A DNA stretch of 64,000 nt from Candidatus Bilamarchaeaceae archaeon (GCA_038870635.1 JAVZJR010000003.1:1-64000); one strand, 5' to 3'. Positions 19,580 through 46,900 are shown, numbered from the stretch's first letter. Numbers and translations: made by a program. The notes: generated by a model from the sequence alone, not told the origin.

Positions 19580-20302
19580 ATGGAACTAAAAAGTGTTTTT
19601 GCAGCATATGGTGAAAAACCACTACTTTTCTTATGGGGGTCATTGCTTTACGTTTTTTTCTCTCTTATAGTTTTACTTTCAACTATTGGCATTCTTCTTG
19701 TCTCATTCTTGCTGCTTTTCTTTTTTGGATACTTACCTAATTTTGATACACCTCTAAATCTAATACTATATGCCCTACCAACAACAATAGCATTGCTCTT
19801 TATGTTATACATGAACGGATGCATCACCGCAGCAACTATTTATGCTTACAAAAATGCCACGAATGGCACTGCAATCTCTCTAATAGATTTTTATCACTAC
19901 GGTCTATCCCGCGGTCCGATGATGTTCTCTATAGGAGTACTAAGGGATTTCTTTATGTTTATCGTAATAGGAGTAGGGGCTGCGATTTATTATTATGGAT
20001 TGCAGGGATTTGAGTATGGCACCCATATACTAGTAATTTATACTCTTATGGTTCTCTTCGTGTTCCATCTTATTACAAAACCAGGAATAATTGCTTGTGG
20101 TCTTGGTGAACGTCCATTTGAAAGTTTTAAGAAAACCTATCTTGTTTTTGCAAAAAAACATATTTATTTTATAGTGTTTTTTACAATGTATGCCTTTGTT
20201 TGGCTAATGAATTTTATTCCAATTTTGCAGTTTATTTCTCTCTTTGTACTCTTCCCTCTTTCATATAGCGCATTGATAAAAATGGTTGAAGAGATAAGGT
20301 GA
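19580..20302 (+). CDS. Hypothetical membrane protein
   Basis: About 6 hydrophobic segments. Confidence 0.75.
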   Translation: MELKSVFAAYGEKPLLFLWGSLLYVFFSLIVLLSTIGILLVSFLLLFFFGYLPNFDTPLNLILYALPTTIALLFMLYMNGCITAATIYAYKNATNGTAISLIDFYHYGLSRGPMMFSIGVLRDFFMFIVIGVGAAIYYYGLQGFEYGTHILVIYTLMVLFVFHLITKPGIIACGLGERPFESFKKTYLVFAKKHIYFIVFFTMYAFVWLMNFIPILQFISLFVLFPLSYSALIKMVEEIR

Positions 20303-20616
20303 TTTTTATGGATAGATTATACGAAATCGCTTTAGAAAAAAGGGCACAGTTAACTAAAATACTAGAAAACGAGCCTTATGCTCCTGATAGTTTTGCCCGC
20401 GTGGGCTATCGTATTAGGGATGGTGCAACATTGGAAGAAGATAAAACTAAAATTTATTTATTCATATCATCTTCAGAAGAATTCGTAAAAAAAGCAGATG
20501 ATAGATTAAAAGATGTTGCAGTCGTTGTCGAAGGTGAAAAGGCTTCACGCATAATTTCAAAAATAAAAGCAGAAGAAGAAGCCGCGGAGAGTGGGTTTGG
20601 CTCACTTTTCGGCTAA
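20299..20616 (+). CDS. Hypothetical protein with ribosomal-stalk-like C-terminus
   Basis: Ends EEEAAESGFGSLFG; AGGTGA RBS suggests start at ATG 20308. Confidence 0.8.
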   Translation: MIFMDRLYEIALEKRAQLTKILENEPYAPDSFARVGYRIRDGATLEEDKTKIYLFISSSEEFVKKADDRLKDVAVVVEGEKASRIISKIKAEEEAAESGFGSLFG

Positions 20617-20694
20617 TTTGTTTTTTTTACTCTTTTTTATACTAACATACACATTTATAAATAGAATTATGTTTAATAATTATTAGGGGTTGAG

Positions 20695-23600
20695 ATGAAA
20701 TATAAGTTTAATTTATTAACTACGAAAGATTTAAATAAACTAAACAATACTAATTATAAGTCGAGATGTTTCTCGATAAAGTATCCGCGGCTCTCAAAAG
20801 CAATTGCTGCTGGATTAGGTTTATGGTTAATGTTAGAGGGTGTTATTATGCCTATAGGCGGTGGTGTTTATGGAAAATTTGGAAAAGAGGTTTATGCGCA
20901 AACTCCAAAGAAAGTTGACCCATACGACGAATTAATTGAATCGTTGAACCAAATAATAAAGGAAAATGAAAAAATAAGTAAAGAATTGAAAGAAGGGACG
21001 GCGATACCACTTTACTTAAACAGTAAAAATGGGAAAAATATATTAACTAGATTAGAAAAAGCCGGTTTTGAAGTAAAAGACGGTAAAGTATTATACAAAG
21101 GAAAAGAAGTATATACATTATCTAAGGACAAGAAAGGACGCTATTATATAGGGGATATTAATGAGTTTACAAATGAAATTGTAGTCATATATAATAAAGA
21201 ACAAGCAAACATGGCAATTGAAAACATAGAAAAAGAAGAAAAAAATAAGCCTACTGCTGTAGCTGTAACTCCTGTTAAAGAAAAATCACAAATAGAAAAA
21301 TCACAAATACGTGAAAAAACGGCAGAAGAGAAAGAAAGTATAAATAAAATAAACAAGTATTGGAGCACCGTTTTAGGCAATTGGGTTGCATACTACTACC
21401 AGACAACTAATAGAATAAAAGAAGAAATAAAAAAAGAAATAGGATATTTAAAAGCGCAGAAAAGTGAAAAAAAACTTAGTAAAAAAGAAATAGAAGAACT
21501 CAATAATAAAATAAATAAACTTGAAGAGAAACTTACAAAAATCGATGATGATTACATAAAATTGAAGAAAGAAATTGAACAAAAAAAGAAAGAAGGATAT
21601 TATACTGAAGAAGACATAAACAAACTAGCAAACATTCTATTAAAAGATTCTCCTCAATTAGAAGAATTTAATAAGTTGGCTTACCCTGAAAAACTCTCAT
21701 TCCTAGAACAACATCTCTTTTATGTGTTACATCTTCAAAGTGAAGCAATTAATTCCTACTTAAAACAAGTAGACACACCTACAAAAGATCTTTTATATGT
21801 TTTAGATATTATAAATAAACAAGAACTAGAAGGTTATTCATTAAACAATATTTTAGGAATACGTCTGCTTTTAGCTGCAATTAATGATAGAGATCTAGAG
21901 AGAAATATATCCAATGCCAAAGAGTACTACGACCAACATAAAGATAAAGGAGAAAAGTACAGAAATATAGCTGAAATAGAAAAAACCCGATTAGAAGGAA
22001 TAAAAGGACTTATAAAAGAAAATGAACTCTACAACAAAGCATTAGAGATTACAAAAAACACTTTCGGTGAAAATAGCGAATTTTATAAAAATGCGAACAG
22101 TAAGTTGGTTGGCGATAAAAAAATAATAGCATACACACTCTTGTCAATTTGTGAATTAAAGAATCTCAATGATTTGAAAAAAAATACACAAGGATTTCGC
22201 TTGGAATTGGCAATTGAACATTTCAACAAGCTCTTTATACCAAGCATGAAAAGCGAGCAGATAAAGAGATTTGAAATGGCGGGGTATGATATGAAAGAAG
22301 ATCCTTTATTATTTAATCCTTATGCTGCTCTAGTAATAGCAAATGTTGGTATAGCGCAAATAATGGGAGGATCAAGATATATTGATTTAGTAGCTTACTT
22401 AAATCGCCATGACCAAATACAAGATGTGCATGCAGTGATAACTTACATATTGGAGAAAGGAGGCATTGCGTACCCATTCATATATCAAAATCCTATACTT
22501 ACAAATGACGATGTGGGTGTTACATTTCTTACAAAAATAATAGATGAGAATAATGAAAAGTTTAATAAATATGTTGGGGGAATAGACCAATCTTTTTACC
22601 CAAATCTCATAACAGATAATAAGAATAGGCAACACAATCCTTACATAGGGTCACCCATCGAAATTATTGAAAGCTACTCACCAAATTATATAAAAAGGAA
22701 AATATTTCCCCAATTTTTAACCCATCGAAATAATGATAGATATGAAGTAGAGTACAAGAGGTTCAATAATAGACAAAACTACCCTGATGAAAGAAAAAAA
22801 GAAGACATACTATCACTACTAACACCTACTGAACAACTTTTAGCATTTGAAGCACCGCAGTCAATATTAGCTCCTCCACCCACAAAAATACCACCGTCAA
22901 CAACAGCAAGATTCGAAAGATTATATGTACTCCCAACGCAATTTGAAATGAAAATTGGCGAAAGTGGATTTTATTATAATGGTGTACCGTCTCCGAGCGC
23001 AATACAAAAAGTTGGGGAAGAAGGCGCAGAGGCGTTAATTAGGGCATTGGTATATGGTTTAAATGTAAAAGAGACGGGCGATGTTAAAAATGCCGCAGAT
23101 AATATAATAAATGAACTTAACAAATGGCAACCAAAAAGTGATGAGGAAAAAAAAATTAAGGATGATATAATAACACAACTTCAAAACGCAAAAACGCCGG
23201 AAGAATTAAGAGCAGCCATAATCAAACTCCAACAAAAAGAACTCGGCATAGATTTTTTAAGTTCTATTTGCTCTTATCAGTGGGAGGGAAATACACTCCG
23301 TATAAGAAATTTGTATGGATTTGAAGTCAACATTAATATGAATGTAACTAAGGAAGAGATAAAAAAAGAATTAGGTGAAAAATATATAAATTTAATAAGT
23401 ATTCCAGCAGGATTAGCAGGAAGGATTGGTTTAGCCTATTCACAAATAGCCGGTACTTTAATTGAAGAAAAACTTATTGATTTTAATGAAAAGAACGAAC
23501 CTGTTTTTGAACCGACTGGCAAAACAAAAAGAGCGATTATGAGTGAATGGGAGGTATATTTAAATGGTATATATAATTTCTTAGCATTCAAAGCGCCAGC

Positions 23601-24159
23601 TGTCTTGGGTGGGGTTGGATTGGTTCAAGTAAATGTAGATATTAATCTTGACAAACAATCGTTAGAAAGAACAATATCTGATAATAAGTTTGATTTTGAT
23701 AACTGGTTATTCTCTAGTAATATAAGTGTTTCTATTGATTTTCCATTTGGTGAAGGTTTCTTCATAAGAAGATTAGAATTAGGTTATCTCAATCCAATAT
23801 TTATAACACAAGAAGGAAAAATGCAACTAACAGAGAATCCATTCGGAAGCATAACATTCGGATATAAAGAAAAGTTAGGAAATATACCTCTTGAAATTTA
23901 TGTTACTCCAACCTATCTAATTAATACAAAGGAACTTATACTATCTTCCCTCATACGAGCACTAATTCCTGTTGGTAAAAACTGGGGGATTATACCCACT
24001 TTGGGATCGAGCTATGATTTTAGAGATGGTCGTCTAAATGCTAATTTTGAACTACCTTTACAATGGGGGATATTTAAGTTGGGACCGTCGGTAGGAATAG
24101 AATATAAAGGCGAAAACATTAATTTCAATATATTAATAAAAGGTGAGGTTAATTTTTAG
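20695..24159 (+). CDS. 1154-aa exported orphan: helical N-terminal part, putative C-terminal beta-barrel
   Basis: Signal-like segment ending VYA|Q; K/E-rich helices; amphipathic beta strands; ends INFNILIKGEVNF. Confidence 0.8.
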   Translation: MKYKFNLLTTKDLNKLNNTNYKSRCFSIKYPRLSKAIAAGLGLWLMLEGVIMPIGGGVYGKFGKEVYAQTPKKVDPYDELIESLNQIIKENEKISKELKEGTAIPLYLNSKNGKNILTRLEKAGFEVKDGKVLYKGKEVYTLSKDKKGRYYIGDINEFTNEIVVIYNKEQANMAIENIEKEEKNKPTAVAVTPVKEKSQIEKSQIREKTAEEKESINKINKYWSTVLGNWVAYYYQTTNRIKEEIKKEIGYLKAQKSEKKLSKKEIEELNNKINKLEEKLTKIDDDYIKLKKEIEQKKKEGYYTEEDINKLANILLKDSPQLEEFNKLAYPEKLSFLEQHLFYVLHLQSEAINSYLKQVDTPTKDLLYVLDIINKQELEGYSLNNILGIRLLLAAINDRDLERNISNAKEYYDQHKDKGEKYRNIAEIEKTRLEGIKGLIKENELYNKALEITKNTFGENSEFYKNANSKLVGDKKIIAYTLLSICELKNLNDLKKNTQGFRLELAIEHFNKLFIPSMKSEQIKRFEMAGYDMKEDPLLFNPYAALVIANVGIAQIMGGSRYIDLVAYLNRHDQIQDVHAVITYILEKGGIAYPFIYQNPILTNDDVGVTFLTKIIDENNEKFNKYVGGIDQSFYPNLITDNKNRQHNPYIGSPIEIIESYSPNYIKRKIFPQFLTHRNNDRYEVEYKRFNNRQNYPDERKKEDILSLLTPTEQLLAFEAPQSILAPPPTKIPPSTTARFERLYVLPTQFEMKIGESGFYYNGVPSPSAIQKVGEEGAEALIRALVYGLNVKETGDVKNAADNIINELNKWQPKSDEEKKIKDDIITQLQNAKTPEELRAAIIKLQQKELGIDFLSSICSYQWEGNTLRIRNLYGFEVNINMNVTKEEIKKELGEKYINLISIPAGLAGRIGLAYSQIAGTLIEEKLIDFNEKNEPVFEPTGKTKRAIMSEWEVYLNGIYNFLAFKAPAVLGGVGLVQVNVDINLDKQSLERTISDNKFDFDNWLFSSNISVSIDFPFGEGFFIRRLELGYLNPIFITQEGKMQLTENPFGSITFGYKEKLGNIPLEIYVTPTYLINTKELILSSLIRALIPVGKNWGIIPTLGSSYDFRDGRLNANFELPLQWGIFKLGPSVGIEYKGENINFNILIKGEVNF

Positions 24160-24169
24160 GTGAGCACGG

Positions 24170-25636
24170 ATGTTTGATGAAAAAGTTGAAAATGCATTAT
24201 GGGTTGTTGATGTAGCAAAAGGGAAGAAGAAACCAGCAACGCTTGAAGAGTGGTTAAAAGTTGTGATATATTCCACTAAAATACTGCGTTTGTACGACAT
24301 AAGCGGAAAACTAAATGGCTGGGCGAGATATGTTTTTGATAAGACAAACGCAACATTGGAAAATAAGGCAAAAATACTCTTGCGTACTATACGAAAAGAA
24401 GCACTTTCACAGATACTTTCCCATTCACCTGAAGAAATAAAAGCAATTAGAAACTCTCTTAAAGAAGAGTACATTTCAACAAGGGTCATAGACTTTGAAC
24501 CAGAGATAAGAGAAAACTTTTACACACTACTAAATATTTTCTTAAGCGATACTTCATTAAAATACTACAAACTTGCTCTTGCAAATCCTGCGCCGGTAAA
24601 TGTACTTATAAATGATATAGGATATATGTTAATAATAATAGACAATTATTACCTTCCTATAGAAACAATAAATGAATTTGAAAACGAAAATGACGCATAT
24701 GCTTTCTTCGCAAACTTTTTGATGCTCATCCTTTATGCAAAAGAGAAAAAAATATTTGAAGCAGATGTATTAATAAATGACAAAATAGCATCAAAATATG
24801 TAAAAGAATGTTATAGAATATTTTCAAAAAGCATAAAAGATGAGAAAAAATCAGGAATAGCAGAACTAATACGCTCTGGGAATATTTGGGATGCTGTTGG
24901 AGAATTGCAAACTTATGAATCCTTCTATTCAGCATTTAAACAAATGCATAACATAAATCTTGTTTCATTTGCGTACGGAGAGATAAAAATAACTTCTTTT
25001 GTAGCGGAAATAACACTGTCAGTTGATAAGTACGGACTTGAAAAAATGGCAGATATATTTGAGAAAAATAAAAATTCAACAAAAGGGTACTTTACTGGAA
25101 TTTTCTACTTAAACGCTGCGATACAAGATTATTTAATAGATAGAAGAGTTTACCTCTCAAGAGAACTCGACCCAATCCTCCCAGACGGAGTAGGTTGGGC
25201 ACTTCCCCTAAAAATAAAATTTGAGTGCACGGCAGATTGGAAAACCATCGTACCATTAAACAAACCTGCTTATCTTTTTGGTATAAAAAATGCGTATATT
25301 GAAACCATGGATAATAAATTTATTTCAGTAAGAAAAGCACCAGAAGATTTTGAAATAGACCCAGTAAATGGTAGCATAGCAAAAATAGAAGTTTACTCGA
25401 CAGAAGAAGAGAATGACTTATTTAAAGGGAATATTATGTTCATACCAGAATTTTTAGGATTGCTATCCAACCTTATGTTAAAAGGAAGAATAGATGAAAG
25501 CATAGTTAACACCCTAAATCTAAACCCAGCGTATAGGAAATTTAATTTTATATCAGAAAAAGGTAAAATTGGAATTGACGGGCATTTCACAGGATATATA
25601 ACTGCAGAAACAAAAACAGGAGGTTTGAAAAAATGA
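24170..25636 (+). CDS. Hypothetical protein (488 aa)
   Basis: AGGTGA RBS; long ORF coupled to next gene; no motif recognised. Confidence 0.8.
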   Translation: MFDEKVENALWVVDVAKGKKKPATLEEWLKVVIYSTKILRLYDISGKLNGWARYVFDKTNATLENKAKILLRTIRKEALSQILSHSPEEIKAIRNSLKEEYISTRVIDFEPEIRENFYTLLNIFLSDTSLKYYKLALANPAPVNVLINDIGYMLIIIDNYYLPIETINEFENENDAYAFFANFLMLILYAKEKKIFEADVLINDKIASKYVKECYRIFSKSIKDEKKSGIAELIRSGNIWDAVGELQTYESFYSAFKQMHNINLVSFAYGEIKITSFVAEITLSVDKYGLEKMADIFEKNKNSTKGYFTGIFYLNAAIQDYLIDRRVYLSRELDPILPDGVGWALPLKIKFECTADWKTIVPLNKPAYLFGIKNAYIETMDNKFISVRKAPEDFEIDPVNGSIAKIEVYSTEEENDLFKGNIMFIPEFLGLLSNLMLKGRIDESIVNTLNLNPAYRKFNFISEKGKIGIDGHFTGYITAETKTGGLKK

Positions 25637-28002
25637 AAAAAATAATATTTTTGTTTTTTTTGTTAACAGTATTTTTTGCTACTGAAAACTCTATTAGAAT
25701 TCATTACCACAGCCAATATGAAACATCAGATGTTATTACAAATCAGAAATTTGTCGCAGATTTAAAAGAATGCACAATAACTGGAAAGGTTATAGAAGGT
25801 GATCCATGCAAAGCAGGCATTTCAAAAGTATGTAAAAACACCGTTATTACATATACGCCTCGGATTGTTGGGTTGTGGGGAGATAACAACAACTATATTA
25901 CAACAACTTTGCCAAATTGTTTTTGCAAAGCACCAGCGGGCTCTGGTCTTCCAGATAGACCATCATACTGTGATCCAAACACAAAAACATGTTCATGTAC
26001 TGTGGAGGGGTATACTCTTTATTGTCCTGAGAATTACTTAGTTGATTACAACACTGATAATAGAGTACTAATTGCTTGGTTACCAGAAAGCATTTATAAT
26101 AAATATGATGTAGAGCATCATGGTTATGCTGAGCAAACAATTTGGTCAGGTTATGCAGCTGGAAAACAAATACTCCAACTTTATAAAGAACTTGGACCAA
26201 ATAATTATCACGCACAAACAATAGATAGATACGATGCAACTTTCACTACATATTATAACAAAAAAGGATATGCAGCAGTATTTTGCAAAGGAAAGTATGA
26301 AATGAAAGAAGGAAATAATATAATAAGAAGCGGAGAGATGCCAATCCAAGAAGGTCTACCCCAAAGAATTTTGATTTTAAACAATGTTGGGACAACAGCG
26401 ACATTTAGTTCAAAACTTTATGGTCTTGATTGTTTTGCTTCTGTTATAAGGCATCCAAAAGATGATGACTACCTTTATGGTTTTGAAATACAATTTAATG
26501 GTTATAAAGTACCACCAATTTCTAATGTAGAAGACATTCACCAAATTGAAGTTGTCGATATAAAATCATCTATGGAGATTATAAGCACAGAAGTAATAGC
26601 AAAAGATGGAAGCGGCAATTATTTACTTAAAACAATTGTAAAAAACACAGGTGATGTAAGAATAAAGATAAATGAAACAAAAGCAGATTATTTACCAAAT
26701 TCAGGAGCAACACCAATGGATAGACAACTATGTAATTTAATCTTCGGACCAAATCCACCAGCAGAATGCAATTATCCAAATGGATATAATTCATATTTTA
26801 ATCCTGGTGAAGAAAAAACGCTTTATACATTATACCTTTATCAAGGAGAATCCAAAGAACTCTGCGATGTTTCAATTATGAGATTAAGTTATACATCCGA
26901 CCAACCAACTTGCTCGCAATATGATAAATGGTGGGCAGCGGTTAATGGACCGTGTATAACCGAACCTATAAAATATCCGCCAAAATGCGAGGTAAAACCA
27001 AAAGAGAATACCATTAATCCTCTTGAGATTCACGAATGGACGGTTAGTTGTTTTGATGAGAATAATAAAGCAGTAGCGTGTGTAGGTAATAATTGGAGAT
27101 GGGAAGGAATAAAAGGTGATTTCGTAACAAAAACAAATGAAAAAGCATTAGCGTATTCAACTGCAACTAGTAAAGTAAGTGGTAAAATAGTTTATAGACA
27201 AGGTGAAATAAATTGCAGTGCAAATGTAACAGTTGATCCGCGCTCTCTTCCACAATTTGTTTGTATGCTTGAGCCATCATCTGCAGAAATGGTTGTTAAT
27301 GAAACTAAAAATTTTGACTTAAAATGTATATTTAGAGACGAAAGCGGCTCTTCAAAAGAAACAAAGCCTCAAAAAGCAGATTATGCAGCAGTCGAAGGGC
27401 TCATAGGAAAAGTCGAGCCATATCCACGCGATCCAACAAGTGGTGTAACCTTTAATGCAACTGACGTAAGCGCAGGAAAACTTAGAGGAATAGGTTATTA
27501 CACAACACCTTTGGACCCAACATTAAGAGGAGCGATTGCCTTTTCATCAATAAATGTTGGTGCTGGTGAATTACAATGCGGTGAAAACGAGACGCTGGTT
27601 TGCCACCTTGAAGAGATAGAACTTCCATTCGGAGGCAGTACATTTATAGTTATATGCGAATGTGTGCCAAAAGAAGATAACGAGGAAGAAGACAAGTCAA
27701 ATATGGAGTGCGTTATAAGCCCACCAAATCAAAGGATATCACCATTACAACCTGGATTAGCAACTGTGAGTTGCTATGATAAGCAAACTTGGAGCAGGGT
27801 AGAATGTGGCAGCGATATAACCTGGTCAATAAATGAGAACCTAGCGACATTCAAAGATAATACTTATGGAAAAACAAATGTTGTATTCAATGCAAAACCA
27901 GGCGCTACTGGCGAGGGGTTCTTAAACGCCAAAGTAGGCGATAATGTAAGATGCGAGGCCAAATTCCTCGTTTCTCCATACACATGCTTAGAAATCAGCT
28001 AA
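25633..28002 (+). CDS. Secreted Cys-rich protein with probable Ig-like modules
   Basis: Signal peptide MKKIIFLFFLLTVFFA; many Cys; VKNTGD motif; three C-x-(V/L/I)-x-P-started modules. Confidence 0.8.
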   Translation: MKKIIFLFFLLTVFFATENSIRIHYHSQYETSDVITNQKFVADLKECTITGKVIEGDPCKAGISKVCKNTVITYTPRIVGLWGDNNNYITTTLPNCFCKAPAGSGLPDRPSYCDPNTKTCSCTVEGYTLYCPENYLVDYNTDNRVLIAWLPESIYNKYDVEHHGYAEQTIWSGYAAGKQILQLYKELGPNNYHAQTIDRYDATFTTYYNKKGYAAVFCKGKYEMKEGNNIIRSGEMPIQEGLPQRILILNNVGTTATFSSKLYGLDCFASVIRHPKDDDYLYGFEIQFNGYKVPPISNVEDIHQIEVVDIKSSMEIISTEVIAKDGSGNYLLKTIVKNTGDVRIKINETKADYLPNSGATPMDRQLCNLIFGPNPPAECNYPNGYNSYFNPGEEKTLYTLYLYQGESKELCDVSIMRLSYTSDQPTCSQYDKWWAAVNGPCITEPIKYPPKCEVKPKENTINPLEIHEWTVSCFDENNKAVACVGNNWRWEGIKGDFVTKTNEKALAYSTATSKVSGKIVYRQGEINCSANVTVDPRSLPQFVCMLEPSSAEMVVNETKNFDLKCIFRDESGSSKETKPQKADYAAVEGLIGKVEPYPRDPTSGVTFNATDVSAGKLRGIGYYTTPLDPTLRGAIAFSSINVGAGELQCGENETLVCHLEEIELPFGGSTFIVICECVPKEDNEEEDKSNMECVISPPNQRISPLQPGLATVSCYDKQTWSRVECGSDITWSINENLATFKDNTYGKTNVVFNAKPGATGEGFLNAKVGDNVRCEAKFLVSPYTCLEIS

Positions 28003-28040
28003 CTCTTTTTTAATTTTTTAAAAAACATCATAGTTTGGGT

Positions 28041-28224
28041 GAGCGTAAGCCTTTGCCCTTGTAATACAGAAGTCAAAGGCTTCGTAAGAAGCCAAGAAAA
28101 CAGGAGAAAACATAAAACGGCTGCGGTGGCCGATGAAAACATAAGTCCACCGCACATAGAAAACAGAAAGTATAACAGAGAAAACAGTAAGAAGCCAAGA
28201 AAACAGTAAGAATACCTAAAAACG
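28041..28224. repeat. Structured dispersed non-coding element, copy 1
   Basis: Near-identical to 49231-49459; stems AAGCCTTTG/CAAAGGCTT and TGCGGTGG/CCACCGCA; six GAAAACA motifs. Confidence 0.9.
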
Positions 28225-39003: not shown

Positions 39004-40707
39004 ATGGCAAGGCAGACTGAGCTAAAAAGCAACGAAATCCTCCAACAAGTGCCCCAAAAAAATATTACGGCAAGAATTTTAGACACACATAAAAAACATA
39101 ATCAAATGATAAAAAAAATAGAACAAAGGCTCGACTATTTAAAAGAAAAATATGGTATAAAAGAAGAATTGGGATTATACTTATTGGGTTTTTTAGCAGG
39201 CGCAATGGATGGTAAAAACTATCTAAAAATTGTGCCTTTAATCTTTTCAAATGGAAAAGCAATGCAAGTCTCTGAAATTTTAAAAGATAAAAACATAGTA
39301 TTTGCCATAGATGACTTAAAAAAATTAGTAAAAAACAAAGAAGAGATTTACAATTTTTACAATGAACTAGAAAAACTAGATTCAAAAGATTTAAGCAAAG
39401 AAAAATTGTGGGAGGCGTATATAAAATCATACGAAAGGAAGTATATACTAGAATATGTTAGTGGATTATGGGAAAAAAGTTACACAGAAGGAAAGTACGA
39501 AATCATTCCAGAAGAAAAGAAAAAAATACCTGAATTAAGAGAAGAACTTATAGAATTGCCGCCAACAACAACTGACCTCTATATTTATGGCTCTAGACCG
39601 ATATATTTTGACAGTCAGACGGGTATAAGCGGGACAAAAGAACAGATTAAATTAGTTCGAGAAGCAGAAATTAAAAAAGAGATAGTGGGCAATGACGAAA
39701 TGCTTCTCTATCTTCTTCCGTTGATAGGAACGGGTTATGCTCTTGTAAAAGATTTAAGAATAATAAAAGAAGGAAGCGAACAAGAGCTAATTAAAATAGG
39801 TAAATTAAGAATCTCAGAAAAAGATATAGGCAAAGGAATGCTTGTGCTTGACCTGTTGTTTGGATGGTGGGACGCAAGTTTCGTTATCCATTTAGGAGCA
39901 AAAAGCGCTGTTAAAACAGCAGCACGGGAAATTGAAAATGTAACAAAAAGTGGGAGGGCGATTGCGGTAAGTGAAATAAACAAAAAAGTCTTATTAAAAG
40001 CAGCAGAAGAATTGGACAATAACGAAATGAAAAAGTTCATAGAGATATTAGGACGAAACCCAAAGTTAGGAGAGGAAATAGTAGCTAAAGCAGGAGGTGT
40101 AAACAACATAACAAAGGAAATACTTAAGGAATATATCAACAAAGAAAAAACAAAAATTAGCACAGTAAAAGAAACAGCACTTTTACTTTCTGAAAGAAAA
40201 TTTAGAGAGTATGCACCTCTCGTCCTTTTCAAGGAAATGGCAGAAAGAACAGAATTAGAATCATTAAGATATCTTGGACAAATGGCAAAAGGTTTAGATG
40301 AAAGAGAAAGAAAAATTGTGCTTAAGGCAATATTCGCTACACTAACAACATTTGACAAAAACGCTCAGAAATCCCTTGCGAATTACGTAAAGAAAAATGG
40401 TTGGAAAGGAATAATAGAAAAAATAGAAATGAAAAAAGATGTCGTAAGGGCACTACAGGAATTGTTTCCAGAATATAAAGATGCTTATAAATATGCACCT
40501 TTGGAGGACATAGTAAAAACAGCGCGAGACCTAGGCGCATTGCACGCGGTATTTGTGTTTGTGCAGTTAATTGGCAGTTATATAAGCACAAAAGAAGAAG
40601 AAAAGCTAAACGAGATTGAATTTATGCAAGGATTAAAGGAACTATCGTATAAAGAAAAGAACAAGGGGTTATTAGATTTATTTATGAAAAGTTATGAAAA
40701 TAAATAA
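39004..40707 (+). CDS. Orphan membrane-associated helical protein (567 aa)
   Basis: Hydrophobic hairpin LLPLIGTGYAL...VLDLLFGWWDA and a C-terminal TM. Confidence 0.8.
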   Translation: MARQTELKSNEILQQVPQKNITARILDTHKKHNQMIKKIEQRLDYLKEKYGIKEELGLYLLGFLAGAMDGKNYLKIVPLIFSNGKAMQVSEILKDKNIVFAIDDLKKLVKNKEEIYNFYNELEKLDSKDLSKEKLWEAYIKSYERKYILEYVSGLWEKSYTEGKYEIIPEEKKKIPELREELIELPPTTTDLYIYGSRPIYFDSQTGISGTKEQIKLVREAEIKKEIVGNDEMLLYLLPLIGTGYALVKDLRIIKEGSEQELIKIGKLRISEKDIGKGMLVLDLLFGWWDASFVIHLGAKSAVKTAAREIENVTKSGRAIAVSEINKKVLLKAAEELDNNEMKKFIEILGRNPKLGEEIVAKAGGVNNITKEILKEYINKEKTKISTVKETALLLSERKFREYAPLVLFKEMAERTELESLRYLGQMAKGLDERERKIVLKAIFATLTTFDKNAQKSLANYVKKNGWKGIIEKIEMKKDVVRALQELFPEYKDAYKYAPLEDIVKTARDLGALHAVFVFVQLIGSYISTKEEEKLNEIEFMQGLKELSYKEKNKGLLDLFMKSYENK

Positions 40708-40727
40708 AAAATGTTTATAACAGAGAT

Positions 40728-43274
40728 ATGTTGGTGATGTTTATGGTTGGTGGTACTATGGTACAAGAAACGTCTGAAAAAAATCCTCAAGAAAAGAGTG
40801 GAATGGACCGTATTAAAAAAGGAGTGCAAAAAATTTTACCACAAAAAAAAGGAAAGAGTATGCCTCATCATCTTGGTGCTCTGATGGAGGAAAACGATTA
40901 TATTAAAAGAGCTTTAAAAAAATTTGAGGATACATATAAAAAATTGCCGCAAACAGAAGCAAAAGAATTACTAAACAAAATTTACGAAGAATACAAAGAA
41001 GCTCTTGAAAGAAACGACAAAGAACAGATAACAATTCTCTATGACATTTTGCAAAAACTTCAAGCAAAAAGAGACGACGTAAATGTAATAAAGATGAGCC
41101 CTATTTTAAAAACAAAAGCAATGAAACAAGAATTAAATGCTGATGATGTGATAAGAATAATAAGCATCGATTTAAAAAATAACGAAAATAAATTAATGAG
41201 TTGGTTAAAAAATCTAAAGTTAGATATGGCAGAACAAGCTGCACTTTTAGTTGAACTAGAAAAAAGAGGACTAATAAAAAGAGATATTATTTTCCAAACG
41301 TTTGAGCGGTTAAGCGGAACAGTAGATGAAGAGATAATCAATAGAATAATAAATGGGCAAACAGCAGTAGATGCTATCGCAAATAGTATACCATCACACC
41401 TCAGAGAAACATATAAAAAATATCAAAGCAATACTTTATCTGAAACTATAAAAAATATAGATAACAGGATAGATGAAATAAAAGATCAAATTAAAAGAAA
41501 GCTTTATGTAGACCAAGCTTTAGATGACGAACTAAAAACTTTAAATGAATTAAAAAATGAAGTGAAAAAGTTTATTGAAGGGGGAACCGAGGCTCTTGAG
41601 ATTTTAGGGAAAAGAATAAGCACTATAGCAGAAGAAGAATTAAGAATAAGCCAAGAGCTAGCTTACCTAAACCGACCGTTTTCATTTAACCTAGGTATAT
41701 TTAAAAAACCAATTATTTTTGGTTTGTGGGCAGGCGGGCTTTATGGTATTTATGAATTAGCAGAAACACCGTGGGCTTCAGTAACAGCATTTATTTTCGG
41801 AATAGGAACGTACTCAACATACAAAAAAGCCAAAGAAGTTGAAGGCCTACGGGCTAGAATAAGAAGAACAGGACCAATAGCGATTTTATGGGCAACTCTT
41901 ACTGGAGTTTCTGGTTACTTAACTTACGAAGCTCTGCAAAAAAAAGAGAATGAATTACAAAACGAACTTATGAAAGAATACAAGCTTTCAAGAGAAGAAA
42001 TAAAAAGATTGGGTGATTTCGCAAAATCAAAAGAAGGAAAAGCAGTGATTAATTATCTAAAAGATTTAAGAGGTAAAATGGTGCGAGAAGGAGAGAGATT
42101 AGATTTCAACAAATTAGAAGAATGGCTCAAAGACGAAAAAACTATTGGTTCATTCAAAAATCTTGAATATTTCATTAAAGCCCTGCTTGAAATTGCTCCT
42201 CTTGTGAAAAATAAAAATGAAGATGAGATAAAAAGAATAATAAATCAAAAAATAGATGAATTTAAACAAAAAGGTTATCTCTACAATAAAGGAGAAAGTG
42301 TGCTTTTTGAATATGGGTTAGCGATTGGCTTATCTGAACAACAAATAGAAAAATTACTATCTTCTGCTGAAAATAAAAAAGAAATTGTTGAACTTTTAAA
42401 AGCAGTTTATGAAGGTAGATTACCGCAAAGCTATGCAATGATATATGCTGAGTTTATACTGCAAGGCAAAAAAGAAGAAGCAGAAAAACTTCTCCTTCAA
42501 CAACCAATACAAAAAAACTCAGCACTCGATCACTTGGACAGGTACACATTGGATATATTGATGGATCCTAATAAAGACATAAAAGAAAAACAAAATGCAA
42601 AAAGGAGATTAGACGAAATAATTAAGTGGTATAATACAAACGAGACGTACAGAAACAATTTAAACCAATCTCTGGGTGAAAACGTAATTTATGGTGATGA
42701 TAAATATGGATGCATAAGTGCTATTATGAGAGGTGACATAACTATAGAACAAATTGCTAATGGTGAAAAATTAGAAGTAGGATATATAATAGCGAACCCT
42801 TTATTAGCAATGATTGACAAGAGATTCATAAGCGATGCGCGAGCAGCAAATTTTGTTAACGAATATGGTTTGCTAGAATTTATTAAAGGCTATATAAAAG
42901 AGAATAAAATCGGCATTGATGCCTATGGCTTAGTAAAAGAATTAGAAAATGATAAAACCTTTAGAGCTATAGATAAAAATAAAAGAAAAGAGTGGTTAAA
43001 GGAAAATCTTGAAAAAGGATTGCTAAAGAAATATCTAAAAACTAAAAATTTGGAAAGAACATATATGGCAAACGGAATAGAAACTGCTCCCCCTACCATA
43101 ATAGAAAAAAAAGAGGGGAAAAGGGCACCTCCAAGCAAAAGAGCACCTCCAAGCAATACTCCTTCACAAGTAATACCAAGGAAAACAGAAAGGCCGCAAC
43201 AACCATCAGGGCGTAAAAAAGTAGGAAAAGAGGAAGAAGGAGGGGGAAAAAAAGAAGAGGAGATAAGTTGGTAA
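40728..43274 (+). CDS. Orphan coiled-coil membrane protein (~840 aa, 3 central TM)
   Basis: Three Gly/aromatic TM segments; disordered tail; start may be a downstream ATG. Confidence 0.8.
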   Translation: MLVMFMVGGTMVQETSEKNPQEKSGMDRIKKGVQKILPQKKGKSMPHHLGALMEENDYIKRALKKFEDTYKKLPQTEAKELLNKIYEEYKEALERNDKEQITILYDILQKLQAKRDDVNVIKMSPILKTKAMKQELNADDVIRIISIDLKNNENKLMSWLKNLKLDMAEQAALLVELEKRGLIKRDIIFQTFERLSGTVDEEIINRIINGQTAVDAIANSIPSHLRETYKKYQSNTLSETIKNIDNRIDEIKDQIKRKLYVDQALDDELKTLNELKNEVKKFIEGGTEALEILGKRISTIAEEELRISQELAYLNRPFSFNLGIFKKPIIFGLWAGGLYGIYELAETPWASVTAFIFGIGTYSTYKKAKEVEGLRARIRRTGPIAILWATLTGVSGYLTYEALQKKENELQNELMKEYKLSREEIKRLGDFAKSKEGKAVINYLKDLRGKMVREGERLDFNKLEEWLKDEKTIGSFKNLEYFIKALLEIAPLVKNKNEDEIKRIINQKIDEFKQKGYLYNKGESVLFEYGLAIGLSEQQIEKLLSSAENKKEIVELLKAVYEGRLPQSYAMIYAEFILQGKKEEAEKLLLQQPIQKNSALDHLDRYTLDILMDPNKDIKEKQNAKRRLDEIIKWYNTNETYRNNLNQSLGENVIYGDDKYGCISAIMRGDITIEQIANGEKLEVGYIIANPLLAMIDKRFISDARAANFVNEYGLLEFIKGYIKENKIGIDAYGLVKELENDKTFRAIDKNKRKEWLKENLEKGLLKKYLKTKNLERTYMANGIETAPPTIIEKKEGKRAPPSKRAPPSNTPSQVIPRKTERPQQPSGRKKVGKEEEGGGKKEEEISW
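43119..43154 (+). repeat. 18-bp in-frame tandem duplication (KRAPPS x2)
   Basis: aaaagggcacctccaagc / aaaagagcacctccaagc. Confidence 0.8.
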
Positions 43275-43295
43275 AATAATGAGGTGAGATGTTAA

Positions 43296-43886
43296 ATGGT
43301 TGTAGCAAAAGTTGCACCAAAAGAAAAAAAAGAAGAGACAGTAGACGAAATAATAGATAATTTTATAAAAATAGAAAGAGGAAAAGATGTAATTAGTTAT
43401 TTCATTGGAAAAGAGGAAAAAATAAAATCCAATAAAGAAAAATTTATAGATAAATTGTACAACCGATTAGAAAAATATATGCTTTCGGATGAAAAGAAAA
43501 GAGAAATCGTAAAAAAGAACAAAAAACAGATTATTCAAACTCTTAACAAGGATAAGTATTATACCAAATTGAAAGACTATTTTCCAACCGAAGACGATGC
43601 TTTTGATTTTTATGTAGATAATGTTAAAAATATAGATGCGCTTTACAATAAAATAAAACTTAAGATTGACACTAAAGAAAAATTAGAAAGAATAAAGGAA
43701 TTTTTAACTAATGAAGCACAAAAAGACGAACGAATAAAATCTGAATTAAGCGATTATGTCAAAATAAATTTTGAAAAGGCACGATACTCTGTTTTTGGGG
43801 CGATGCTTTATTTGCGAGCTAAAGAAAACCCAAAAAGTGAGCCGTGTGAAGAATCATTAATAAAAAAAGATGAGTTTACATTTTAG
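43296..43886 (+). CDS. Orphan helical protein
   Basis: GAGGTGA RBS; 196 aa. Confidence 0.75.
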   Translation: MVVAKVAPKEKKEETVDEIIDNFIKIERGKDVISYFIGKEEKIKSNKEKFIDKLYNRLEKYMLSDEKKREIVKKNKKQIIQTLNKDKYYTKLKDYFPTEDDAFDFYVDNVKNIDALYNKIKLKIDTKEKLERIKEFLTNEAQKDERIKSELSDYVKINFEKARYSVFGAMLYLRAKENPKSEPCEESLIKKDEFTF

Positions 43887-43947
43887 GATTGAAACCAAAA
43901 AACACCATCCAACAGGATTTTAAAATAGTTACTATAAATTATAAATT

Positions 43948-46900
43948 ATGGCTGATGGAAAAAAAACAATCAGCTTACGCTATAAAATAATTTCCAATAT
44001 ATTACTTGTTAGTTTATCAACTACAACTTTTTTCTCTCAGCCTAACTTTAAAAATCCTTTTAGGCTAAATGATGTTATGGCAGAGGGATATCGTGTCTCT
44101 AAACAACCACAGGAGATAGACATAAATAAAAAGATAGAAGAAATAACAAAGATAAACAATGAGAAAAAGAAAAACCAGAATATAGAAGAATTGATAAATT
44201 ATATTAATAAAAATAATAAAAATTTAAATAACTTTTTATCAACCTTCAAACAAACAACACTTAAAGCAATGGATGATCCTCAAGAATATCAAAAATTCCT
44301 TATCTATGTGCAAATAATAAATAAAATAGAACTACACAAAAATGAAAATTTCATTAGCATAGTAAAAGAAATAATAGAAAAAATTAAAGAGGAAAAAAAA
44401 GATATTTGGGAAGCTTATGATAAATATCTGAAGGATAAGGGTGAAAAACCAAAACTGACAACATTAATCAAAATAATAAATGATATAAAAACAGGGGAAG
44501 ATTCTTATCCGAACTATCTTAAAGAGGCCGTACTTGGGGGAAAAAAGGGAACACAGGAAATACCACCATCATTGATAATACCGACTCCAATCAAAAAGAT
44601 TGATAAAGAAGATATAGAAAGCACATTAAAATTTGCAGAAAAAAGAATAGAATATGCTAAAGAAACCATACAACAACTTAAAGAAATGGCTAACGAAATA
44701 AAAAATAATGAAGAAAAAAAGAAGGTAGACGAAATTATTGCAAAATGGGAAGAAAAAATAGAAAATTATGAGAAGATCATAAAAGAGAGTAAAGAAGCTT
44801 TCTATAAAACTTCTTATGAAAAAGAAGATGCGACGAAAATAAAAAACATAACAAAGATTGCAACAGAAATTGAAGAATTTATTAAAAATGAATTAGTTCA
44901 TTCGAGCGACATAAGAATAACAAAACAATTTGCTTATCACCTTATAGGAGCAATGACCACCGGTACAGAAGGGGACTACACAGAAGTACAAAAACTTAAA
45001 GCTATTCTTGAAAACACGAAAACGATAGCACCAAAAAAATATGAATTTTGTATAATGCTTATTAAATCATTCGTGCAAGAGGTCTCACCGGATGTCTACA
45101 AAGCATTAGAAAGCATTAATTCTGAGAGAGCACTCAATATAGCGATAGCAGCAGTATTAACTGCAAATGATAGAGAATTACAAAAAATAAAAGAACAATA
45201 TGGCAATGATTTTGTATCTTATGTTTTAGGAAATAGAGAAAAAATAAATGAAAAAGAAATAAGAGAAGAAGCGAAAAAAAGGATAAACATTGACTTTGAA
45301 ACTCCAATTACACAATCGCTTGCTTTGCTCGACGCAGTGAGAATTCTTAGAAATCGACTTACTTATATTCTAACATCAACTGATTCATTAGAGAGTATGC
45401 AAAAAAACATCTCAAATTGGATGGAGAATTATAAAAAAATAGCAGGCAATGATCTTGCCTTACTCAACTTATTTTATGATATCGATAAAATAGCCGAAAC
45501 TGCGGGACTAAAAAAACCAACCAACACAGAGGAAGCAAAAAAACTATTTTTAGAGATTTTTAATTACCTCAATCAGAACCAACAACAAACAAATATAGCT
45601 TCTGCTGATGCGATAACAAAATTTTATCTTTTAAAAGTAAGAGAGCTAGCAACCAAATACAATCTAGACGCAAAAGCAGTAGAAGCGATGGATATATCGA
45701 TAATCGCCTTGGAAAAAATAGATCGTAAATTAATACCTGCTTTTTATGAGGATGTAGTTGTAGTATTAGCAAAAACACTAGAAGGTAGATCTGCTGAGTT
45801 CTCAGAATCATTACTAACTTTTAGCGGTCTTCTTCAAGCTCGCTATCCCACTGAAAGAGCAAATCTGTCATTTTTAGTTTTGGATGTAGAAGAAAAATTC
45901 AAAAAGGTATTTATATGGTTTAAAGAGAATATACCACAAGCAACAGCGAAAATGACTCATTATGAACTTATGGAAGAAACAAGAGAAAGAAGTGAACTAA
46001 CAGAATACGAAGTTTACCCCCCCTATAACTTATATGGATTAAAAGAATCAATATGGCAAAGACCATCTGCGGTCTATTTTCAGGATGTATTTTATAGATA
46101 TGGAATTGATTATCTTCCAAATCCTCAAATTCCTTACCCTGCTACAATGCCTTATGGCCCATTGACAATAAACACAGATGCAGAAGGACTTCACCTAAAA
46201 TTAGACAACCAACTTAATCCATTCATTCCTACATTTGGAAGACCAACCTTAAGCGGAGATTTTAGGATTACTGCAGTTTCAAGAGCAGTCATGCTTGCAA
46301 CAATAAGAAAAGCATTCGGTCAAATATCTATGTATTCTCCATATGAATTAATAGCGGCATATGGTGAAAGCGCAGGGTATTATAGATGGGAAGAAAAAAA
46401 AGGAGGAAAAATAACTGAAACGATGGGGGCAGGCGGCCTCAGAGGTAAATATGAAGAAAGGCATCCTGCTGGTGGTTTAGCTGCACAAATAGTAGGTGAA
46501 AAAAGCACAACAACAAGAGAAGAAGGTGGTGGCACTGAGGAAATCAAAACAACAATTGGAAAAACAGATTTGTATGGAACATTAACTGGCGGCGGTGTTG
46601 GATCCATAGTCACCGTGGCGGATAATTTAAGATTCACAGAAGAAGAAAGACCGAATAGCAAAAATGCTGCTATGAAAGCTACCATCAATCAATTAAGCGC
46701 ATTATCACAAGAAAATGGACAAAGTTTGCTTGTTTATTTCCCTGATATTGAGACAGAGGAAAAAATAGTAAAAGATGAAAAAGGCGTGGAAAAAACAGAA
46801 AGTAAAAAAATAATGGGTGGGAAGGTCTACTATATTAATCCTCATGGTGATGTTTATCAGTTAGCACTTGGCCATAATGAGTTTGATGCTTTTAAGCAGT

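Follow-up and report, generated by a model that had tools for sequence, protein, structure and literature searches.

A giant, fast-diversifying protein of one Candidatus Bilamarchaeaceae genus with a predicted C-terminal outer-membrane-type β-barrel

What is the function of an archaeal protein whose C-terminus is modelled as a bacterial-looking membrane barrel? The question is raised by an open reading frame (ORF) of 1154 amino acids (aa) in a stretch of DNA of 64,000 nucleotides (nt) from a Candidatus Bilamarchaeaceae archaeon (GCA_038870635.1, JAVZJR010000003.1:1-64000), the whole of which is called the window here. Outer-membrane-type β-barrels are markers of diderm bacteria and of organelle descendants, and no report of such a barrel in archaea was found in the literature, as judged from abstracts. 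The window is archaeal. A scan of its proteins against a family library finds FtsZ, FttA/aCPSF1, glutamine synthetase, thermosome, and a subunit of the proteasome. The nearest named homologues of the giant protein are labelled Candidatus Bilamarchaeaceae, a group which the NCBI taxonomy places in Archaea, Nanobdellati (DPANN), Microcaldota, Micrarchaeia. With a completeness of 89.6%, the organism's own genome amounts to 859 kb on 8 contigs. An earlier note on the window had described the ORF as a signal segment, a helical body, a Pro-rich linker, and a barrel, and had taken it for a probable distant paralogue of a 1741-aa protein encoded further downstream. The ORF is real, starts with ATG, and belongs to a family and an operon which are confined to a single genus. 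It is about an even call, in our judgement, whether the gene specifies a lineage-specific, fast-diversifying cell-envelope protein with an autotransporter-like layout and a predicted C-terminal barrel seated in a lipid layer.

The barrel emerges from the second of two AlphaFold2 models, calculated for residues 750-1154 from an alignment of 7 rows; model residues 154-405 correspond to residues 903-1154 of the protein. This model, with a predicted local distance difference test score (pLDDT) of 68.9 and a predicted template modelling score (pTM) of 0.49 (pLDDT 53.5-68.9 among the five models), consists of a four-helix module, a small sheet with two helices, and a series of long strands between residues 908 and 1153. 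Confidence is highest within the predicted barrel in its C-terminal half, where the last 100 residues reach pLDDT 70-88. A structural comparison by VIA-align with 48,161 representative chains returned 62 chains at Z ≥ 8, and most of the 50 listed are outer-membrane barrels. The best match is VhGalP (8xua), with Z 17.1 and a root-mean-square deviation (rmsd) of 2.6 Å over 185 residues, and it is joined by KdgM (4pr7, Z 16.5) and NanC (2wjr, Z 15.8), the three superposing at 2.6-2.9 Å over 168-185 residues. Further matches include PcoB (Z 16.2), OmpLA (Z 15.6), the COG4313 channel (Z 15.0), a designed 12-stranded barrel (Z 12.4), and the β-domains of the autotransporters AIDA-I (14.9), BrkA (14.9), EspP (14.8), AaaA (14.6), NalP (13.7), Hbp (13.7), and EstA (13.2). 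The matches to VhGalP, KdgM, PcoB, NanC, OmpLA, AIDA-I, BrkA, and EspP all span model residues 154-405. Foldseek finds 185 matches in the Protein Data Bank (PDB) at E ≤ 0.001; the 35 listed, which include a computed OmpC model, are without exception outer-membrane barrel proteins, and those to autotransporters lie between E 1.8e-7 and 1e-5. In a viral structure library, 12 matches at E ≤ 0.001 comprise 5 named outer-membrane barrel proteins and 7 uncharacterised or unnamed entries.

The amphipathic pattern expected of such strands, which the earlier note had described for the C-terminus, is likewise present and exceeds chance. Averaged over the family, the two faces of the 13 modelled strands differ in hydropathy by 2.12, compared to 1.12 ± 0.23 in shuffled sequences, and none of 2000 shuffles attains the observed value. 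The difference amounts to 1.6-4.7 in 10 strands. In the last strand an apolar face I-F-I-I-G-V opposes a polar face N-N-N-L-K-E-N, followed by the terminal F. The strings quoted from this region all stand where they had been placed (GSITFGYKEK at residue 1051, WGIIPTLGSSYDF at 1097, FKLGPSVGIEY at 1127, and NFNILIKGEVNF at 1143-1154), and the barrel proposed on their basis gains support at the level of the model. Residues 903-1154 are accordingly predicted, from a modelled fold, to form an outer-membrane-type β-barrel of about 12 strands.

A number of observations weigh against a barrel seated in a lipid layer, and they are considered here together with two alternatives. The first alternative holds that the barrel fold is real but not membrane-embedded. 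The giant would then be an ordinary surface protein of a DPANN archaeon, and the barrel would either provide a lipid-binding cavity or serve as a structural or oligomerisation domain, soluble or associated with the S-layer. Cultivated relatives in the phylum are reported to carry an S-layer on a single membrane and not an outer membrane, as described for Ca. Micrarchaeum harzensis (10.1101/2021.04.28.441871) and for ARM-1 (PMC11329633), which falls into the same NCBI phylum as the window's organism; no membrane suited to such a barrel is known there. A search for Omp85/BamA (PF01103) gave nothing at E ≤ 1 in the organism's own genome, which is 89.55% complete. The terminal aromatic residue is not conserved: four of six aligned members end in F, F, W, and W and two in ...NLER, while the giants of the genomes G066 and G409 carry the polar tail ...IPEKKK and that of G291 ends in ...RKDPQENKKQ. 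Soluble barrel-like folds also appear in the VIA-align list at Z 9.0-9.7 (the DUF1849 protein 6ntr, the LolA-like 3bk5, and 9tp6). However, hollow 12-stranded membrane barrels score Z 15-17 as against about 9.5 for these soluble folds. Furthermore, most strands present one strongly apolar face (family mean Kyte–Doolittle (KD) hydropathy 1-2.7) and one strongly polar face. A hollow 12-stranded barrel has no room to bury an apolar face in its interior. A barrel that never enters a membrane appears rather unlikely to us, albeit deserving of serious attention.

The second alternative regards the barrel as an artefact of the shallow alignment; the giant would then be an orphan surface protein ending in a non-barrel β-sandwich or solenoid adhesin domain. 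The prediction depends on one model of medium confidence with the few alignment rows, pLDDT range, and pTM given above. DSSP assigns 13 strand segments, an odd number, where the best matches have 12, and three of the 13 (908-930, 936-948, and 1021-1037) alternate weakly, the first two strands being without alternation. The full-length model is poor (pLDDT 47.7) and gives 0 Foldseek matches at E ≤ 0.001. Pfam assigns no family to the whole giant at E ≤ 0.01, none to residues 903-1154 at E ≤ 5, and none to the barrel region of five homologues; the barrel profile (A6) retrieves a single, unrelated match from the PDB sequences (E 0.12). When alternating segments are counted over the 300 C-terminal residues, the giant comes joint first among 557 ORFs, but an Lrp/AsnC regulator and a Na/Ca exchanger also rank at the top, so that this measure was discarded as unspecific. 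Against an artefact stands the fact that both separate predictions give a next-neighbour meander of long strands, and that outer-membrane barrels also predominate among the weak matches obtained with the full-length model, all of which miss the threshold of E ≤ 0.001. Strands of 10-18 residues connected by short turns are unlike those of sandwich domains, and a Z-score of 17 at the rmsd and length quoted for VhGalP points in the same direction. A language-model look-up of the whole giant also lists Phage_OMP, BcsS, and Autotransporter clusters at a score of 0.82, below the look-up threshold. On balance, an artefact seems improbable. Stand-alone relatives of 136-464 aa were not found with the barrel profile, and a TraF_2 Pfam match below the cut-off (E 0.008) at residues 757-903 of one homologue (P0003) lies outside the barrel and was treated as noise.

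Returning to an envelope protein with a barrel in a lipid layer, the parts preceding the barrel (Table 1) reveal how such a protein might be arranged. Conservation was assessed in 6 aligned sequences with 26-89% identity. In the N-terminal tail, which is presumably cytoplasmic, K11, L13, N14, F26, S27, and K35 are invariant. The tail is followed by the single hydrophobic stretch of the protein, residues 36-59 (KD 1.84 over residues 36-55), in which M46, E48, G49, V50, M52, and P53 are invariant. The giant of G409 displays the same design of polar tail and hydrophobic segment. A class III (prepilin-type) signal was considered and rejected, as homologues do not retain the K followed by G/A that precedes the hydrophobic stretch. 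Given the conserved tail and a polar residue within the hydrophobic segment, an uncleaved N-terminal anchor in the symbiont's own membrane is plausible from the sequence. The earlier note had seen an atypical signal segment in both giants. In the 1154-aa protein this hydrophobic stretch lies at its place; in the 1741-aa protein the corresponding segment stays below KD 1.6 and the N-termini of its homologues differ. The helical body is recognisable in the DSSP assignment of the full-length model, which contains mainly helices up to about residue 720; it is, however, seen in this poor model alone. Within the body, residues 251-300 consist of 50% K+E. Confidence is locally higher at residues 440-490, which reach pLDDT 70-87 and lie in the most conserved core of the family. 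In the linker, P721 and P727 are invariant, and the string APPPTKIPPS begins at residue 726 as had been stated. The four-helix module, with helices at positions 18-40, 45-60, 67-82, and 86-98 of the model of residues 750-1154, is the best-modelled part, and two short helices at residues 886-902 directly precede the predicted barrel.

Table 1. Positions of the giant gene, its parts, and associated features in the window
Feature	Position	Strand	Remarks
Giant exported (predicted) protein, 1154-aa ORF (P0001)	20695..24159	+	ATG start
TATA-box-like element TTTATAAATA	20654..20663	+	32 nt upstream of ATG, within the 78 nt that separate the giant gene from the gene before it; read from the sequence
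Residues 1-35, polar N-terminal tail	20695..20799	+	consensus MKxKY..KDLN..FSxKYPxLxK; conserved in the family
Residues 36-68, hydrophobic export/anchor segment (predicted)	20800..20898	+	contains LMxEGVxMP; ends VYA/Q (residues 66-69)
Residues 111-152, small α/β domain	21025..21150	+	full-length model, pLDDT 72-77 there; one helix (111-122) plus four short strands
Residues 155-590, mostly helical body with K/E-rich long helix	21157..22464	+	DSSP of the low-confidence full-length model
Residues 440-650, most conserved family core	22012..22644	+	YTLLSICELK, FNxNAALVIAN, GGxDQSFxP; invariant columns cluster
Residues 719-738, Pro-rich linker EAPQSILAPPPTKIPPSTTA	22849..22908	+	two Pro invariant in 6 sequences
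Residues 767-847, four-helix module	22993..23235	+	model of residues 750-1154, pLDDT 69-90
Residues 858-902, small sheet (three short strands) with two helices, before the barrel	23266..23400	+	most variable region between near-identical strains
Residues 908-1154, amphipathic β-meander, predicted outer-membrane-type barrel	23416..24156	+	best matches 12 strands; DSSP 13 segments
488-aa ORFan, second operon gene	24170..25636	+	11 nt downstream of the giant gene; no signal or membrane segment
789-aa secreted-type (predicted) protein, third operon gene	25633..28002	+	signal-like N-terminus, 31 Cys; start overlaps the 488-aa stop by 4 nt
1741-aa protein, giant ORFan	43948-49173		

The family is small and fast-evolving. 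HMMER searches of 1.84 billion representative proteins detect 7 relatives of the giant: a strain variant with 89% identity (P0003, P0001 being the protein of the window), a partial record (P0004), four full-length proteins of 1161-1212 aa with 26-33% identity, and one fragment-like protein of 653 aa. Sequence and profile searches of the PDB were both empty. In a phylum sample of 401 genomes from 155 genera, the window's own genus included, the giant occurs in three of five other genomes of its genus and in none of the other 154 genera; if the syntenic proteins of G291 (at locus L020) and G409 are added, four of the six other genus genomes examined carry a giant gene. The barrel profile detects no further genomes among the 401 and gives the same picture as the whole protein. 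Even within the genus, divergence is considerable. The giant of G409 measures 1533 aa and that of G066 is cut at its 5′ end, their C-terminal modules matching the family profile at E 1.7e-10 and 1.7e-9, whereas the giant of G291 is barely recognisable by sequence (E 0.07). Identity to G064 declines from 95% for FtsZ through 79% (133-aa protein), 72% (105-aa), 65% (240-aa), 51% (488-aa), and 37% (789-aa) to 27% for the giant. The two near-identical variants P0001 and P0003 exhibit 145 differences, 33 of them in residues 851-950; changes are concentrated at residues 801-950 and 1101-1150, and there are hardly any in residues 251-600. Giant-gene DNA recurs in hot-spring metagenomes from 3 studies, two of the holders possibly being the source sample, and in contigs from other samples variants cluster at the same hot spot (nt 23270-23531).

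Two further observations concern variation at this locus. Assemblies break inside or beside the giant gene in four other genomes of the genus (end of G074:C9, start of G291:C7 and C68, start of G066:C38, and G233:C101), which fits strain-level hypervariability. In addition, the first ~190 residues of the partial public record P0004 are an unrelated β-rich, Ig-like-looking stretch, and from residue 439 of P0001 onwards the record is of the P0003 type, with one differing position among the aligned columns listed. The record reflects either natural exchange of its front part or chimeric assembly.

The giant gene and the two genes downstream of it form one predicted operon, and the TATA-box-like TTTATAAATA is, from its sequence, a candidate promoter for all three. 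The order giant, 488-aa, 789-aa is kept wherever contigs allow it to be seen, namely in G064, the metagenome contigs L008 and L009, G066, G291, and G409. In a family sample of 77 genomes from 23 genera, the 488-aa partner occurs in all 6 further genomes of the giant's own genus but in none of 70 genomes from 22 other genera. The 789-aa protein is always encoded by the third gene, retains about 30% identity in G409, and belongs to no known family. Searches of Pfam, NCBIfam, and PHROGs with the giant, the 488-aa, the 789-aa, and the 1741-aa protein were all negative. A provirus or mobile element as the source of the locus was discarded, no phage family being present and the position beside FtsZ being fixed in four loci. 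The gene for a 240-aa membrane protein upstream of the giant gene is found in 64 of 77 family genomes, and within ~9 kb downstream of it no relatives of the three operon genes occur in 8 loci from 5 other genera. The upstream 240-aa and 105-aa proteins, tried as parts of the system, consequently fall outside it, as the former is family-wide and not linked to the operon genes in other genera. For the same reason, the operon represents either an innovation of a single genus or an insertion in it.

Three side observations relate to the neighbourhood of the operon. The 105-aa protein (window 20299-20616, + strand) has no Pfam match and terminates in ...EEEAAESGFGSLFG, a tail which we take to resemble the conserved tail of the archaeal ribosomal stalk protein P1. 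Among the 8 loci examined in 5 other genera, 6 have its gene next to that for the 240-aa membrane protein. A short distance beyond the operon's 3′ end (window 28033-28087), alternative inserts of 30-32 nt are present in contigs of four runs, implying a repeat unit of varying copy number.

Among known systems, the type Va autotransporters (EspP, Hbp, AIDA-I, BrkA, NalP, EstA; PF03797) have their parts in the same order as the giant: an export segment with a long conserved N-terminal extension, a large passenger, then a linker, and lastly a barrel of ~250 residues, which in the giant is predicted. The giant's N-terminal tail may be likened to the extended signal peptides of autotransporters. With respect to the signal itself, the hydrophobic residues 36-55 of the giant hold a conserved Glu, follow a conserved 35-aa tail, and lead to VYA/Q. 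The modelled barrel matches type Va β-domains at Z 13.2-14.9 over model residues 154-405. There are also several differences. The C-terminal aromatic residue of type Va proteins is kept in some members of the giant family but not in all; a PF03797 sequence match is absent; the type Va passenger is a β-helix, whereas residues 76-850 of the giant are modelled as mostly helical, in the full-length model of pLDDT 47.7; and type Va hosts are diderm bacteria, while the giant's host is an archaeon in whose 89.55%-complete genome Omp85/BamA was not found. The porins of the KdgM/NanC type (VhGalP, KdgM, NanC) provide the best fold matches to the predicted barrel (Z 17.1, 16.5, and 15.8). These porins are, however, stand-alone proteins of ~210-250 aa in bacterial outer membranes, in contrast to a barrel that would form the tail of an 1154-aa protein, and they have no sequence similarity to the giant in Pfam or in profile searches of the PDB. 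Type Vc trimeric autotransporter adhesins combine a helical or coiled-coil stalk with a C-terminal 12-strand membrane barrel, resembling the giant's predicted layout. Their barrel is assembled from three chains contributing 4 strands each, whereas one chain of the giant would give all strands. Because it fails on sequence, passenger type, and insertase, the giant is not a member of the autotransporters and is filed here as an archaeal variant of a barrel-anchored autotransporter-type surface protein.

Closer to the organism, giant lineage-specific surface proteins of DPANN archaea are likewise fast-evolving exported ORFans encoded in envelope operons of small, symbiont-type genomes. In ARM-1, cryo-tomography shows a large barrel-shaped complex of unidentified proteins, 21 nm in width, under the S-layer where host nanotubes dock (PMC11329633). 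The giant family, being found in one genus alone, cannot be a general component. According to PMC4243693, which cites Comolli 2009, ARMAN cells had appeared in earlier tomograms to possess two membranes. In their accessible parts, neither this paper nor those on Ca. Micrarchaeum harzensis and ARM-1 (10.1101/2021.04.28.441871; PMC11329633) concern the window's genus or name the giant's family.

The remaining alternative, and the central proposal of the earlier note, is that the giant is a distant paralogue of the 1741-aa protein within one family of stalk-plus-barrel proteins differing in barrel size. Both are giant ORFans with helical fronts and β-rich ends finishing in F or W, and a language-model look-up gives a barrel lead for the end of the 1741-aa protein. 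The strings quoted for the 1741-aa protein are in place (VMA/E at residues 43-46 and AVLTANDREL at 402), as is LLAAINDRDL at residue 392 of the giant. The motif supposedly shared by the latter two is nonetheless unconserved in the family of the 1741-aa protein, whose two homologues have an insertion and other residues there, and sequence sharing of the giants is at chance level, with 4 exact 5-mers against a mean of 2.6 (maximum 9) in 200 shuffles. With this motif and the second signal segment gone, the "same layout" of the two proteins holds loosely at best. BLASTP aligns the K/E-rich helix alone (116 residues, 30 bits, E 0.001). An hhalign comparison of the whole families (A4 against A3) yields a probability of 0.6% and E 0.098. 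For the two C-terminal modules (A6 against A7) the alignment is co-linear over 158 columns and includes LGSSYDF opposite LGLSYDW (E 0.056), but its probability is 1.0%. Searches of the organism's own genome with the giant and its N- and C-terminal profiles return the giant itself as the sole match. The two loci have no accessory genes in common, their neighbouring genes being unrelated. Distribution separates them as well: the giant is confined to one of the 155 genera sampled in the phylum, while the 1741-aa protein's C-terminal module ranges more widely, occurring in 15 of 77 family genomes and 3 of 23 genera on proteins of ~1400-3000 aa. Neither sequence comparison, distribution, nor gene context thus supports paralogy, which we consider improbable.

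The 1741-aa protein may also end in a barrel-like module, although this is a language-model lead and no evidence of common descent. For its residues 1290-1741, the look-up assigns outer-membrane barrel families to 14 of 30 matches and no family to the other 16; the 10 best family-bearing matches, at scores of 0.90-0.91, are all barrel families (DUF6850, HP_OMP, Tsx, and Porin_O_P among those returned). However, 4-10% of shuffled proteins also attain scores of 0.9, and few features are shared (100-123 of 256). As separate observations, the organism's own genome contains a second, contig-cut copy of this module (G000:C1:203-694, - strand; E 5e-85), and the G+C content is 0.30-0.33 over both giant-gene clusters (window 20001-26000 and 40001-46000) compared to 0.35-0.39 in their flanks. 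Elsewhere in the genome (G000:C1:386468-391881), the gene for a HerA/TraG-type P-loop ATPase of 529 aa is followed by those for a 246-aa coiled-coil protein and an 862-aa ORFan, a group that may form part of a T4SS/Ced-like machinery.

If the giant is an envelope protein whose barrel resides in a lipid layer, it would comprise, from the N-terminus, a polar tail, a hydrophobic export or anchor segment, a helical ectodomain of ~650 residues, the Pro-rich linker, the four-helix module, and a barrel of ~250 residues. The protein would be exported, and its helical part with the K/E-rich long helix could span the envelope as a stalk. The apolar outer face of the barrel might then sit in a lipid layer, either the membrane of a partner or host or an outer lipid layer of the symbiont. 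In this position the giant may anchor, or open a pore at, the interface between two cells, and the two genus-restricted products of the operon, one of a cytoplasmic type and the other Cys-rich and predicted to be secreted, might work together with it. The extreme divergence would reflect selection at an interface exposed to a host or virus. Provided that the N-terminal anchor remains uncleaved and the barrel lies in a lipid layer, the giant would tether two membranes. Whether an archaeon in which no BamA is found could possess a true transmembrane barrel of the outer-membrane type is a bolder proposition, and we regard it as possible but doubtful. Such a barrel would be self-inserting or aided by the two other operon products, with the N-terminus anchored in the symbiont membrane and the barrel in the host membrane or in an outer lipid layer around the symbiont.

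That the operon diverges so rapidly inside a single genus marks it as a strongly selected interface. A barrel-tailed giant would be a testable candidate for how DPANN cells attach to their hosts or open a channel into them, and it would bear on the question of whether any Micrarchaeia carry a lipid outer layer. Should the transmembrane barrel prove true, the giant would constitute a molecular bridge or pore from a DPANN cell to its partner, and the earlier claim that ARMAN-type cells have two membranes, relayed in PMC4243693, would be reopened.

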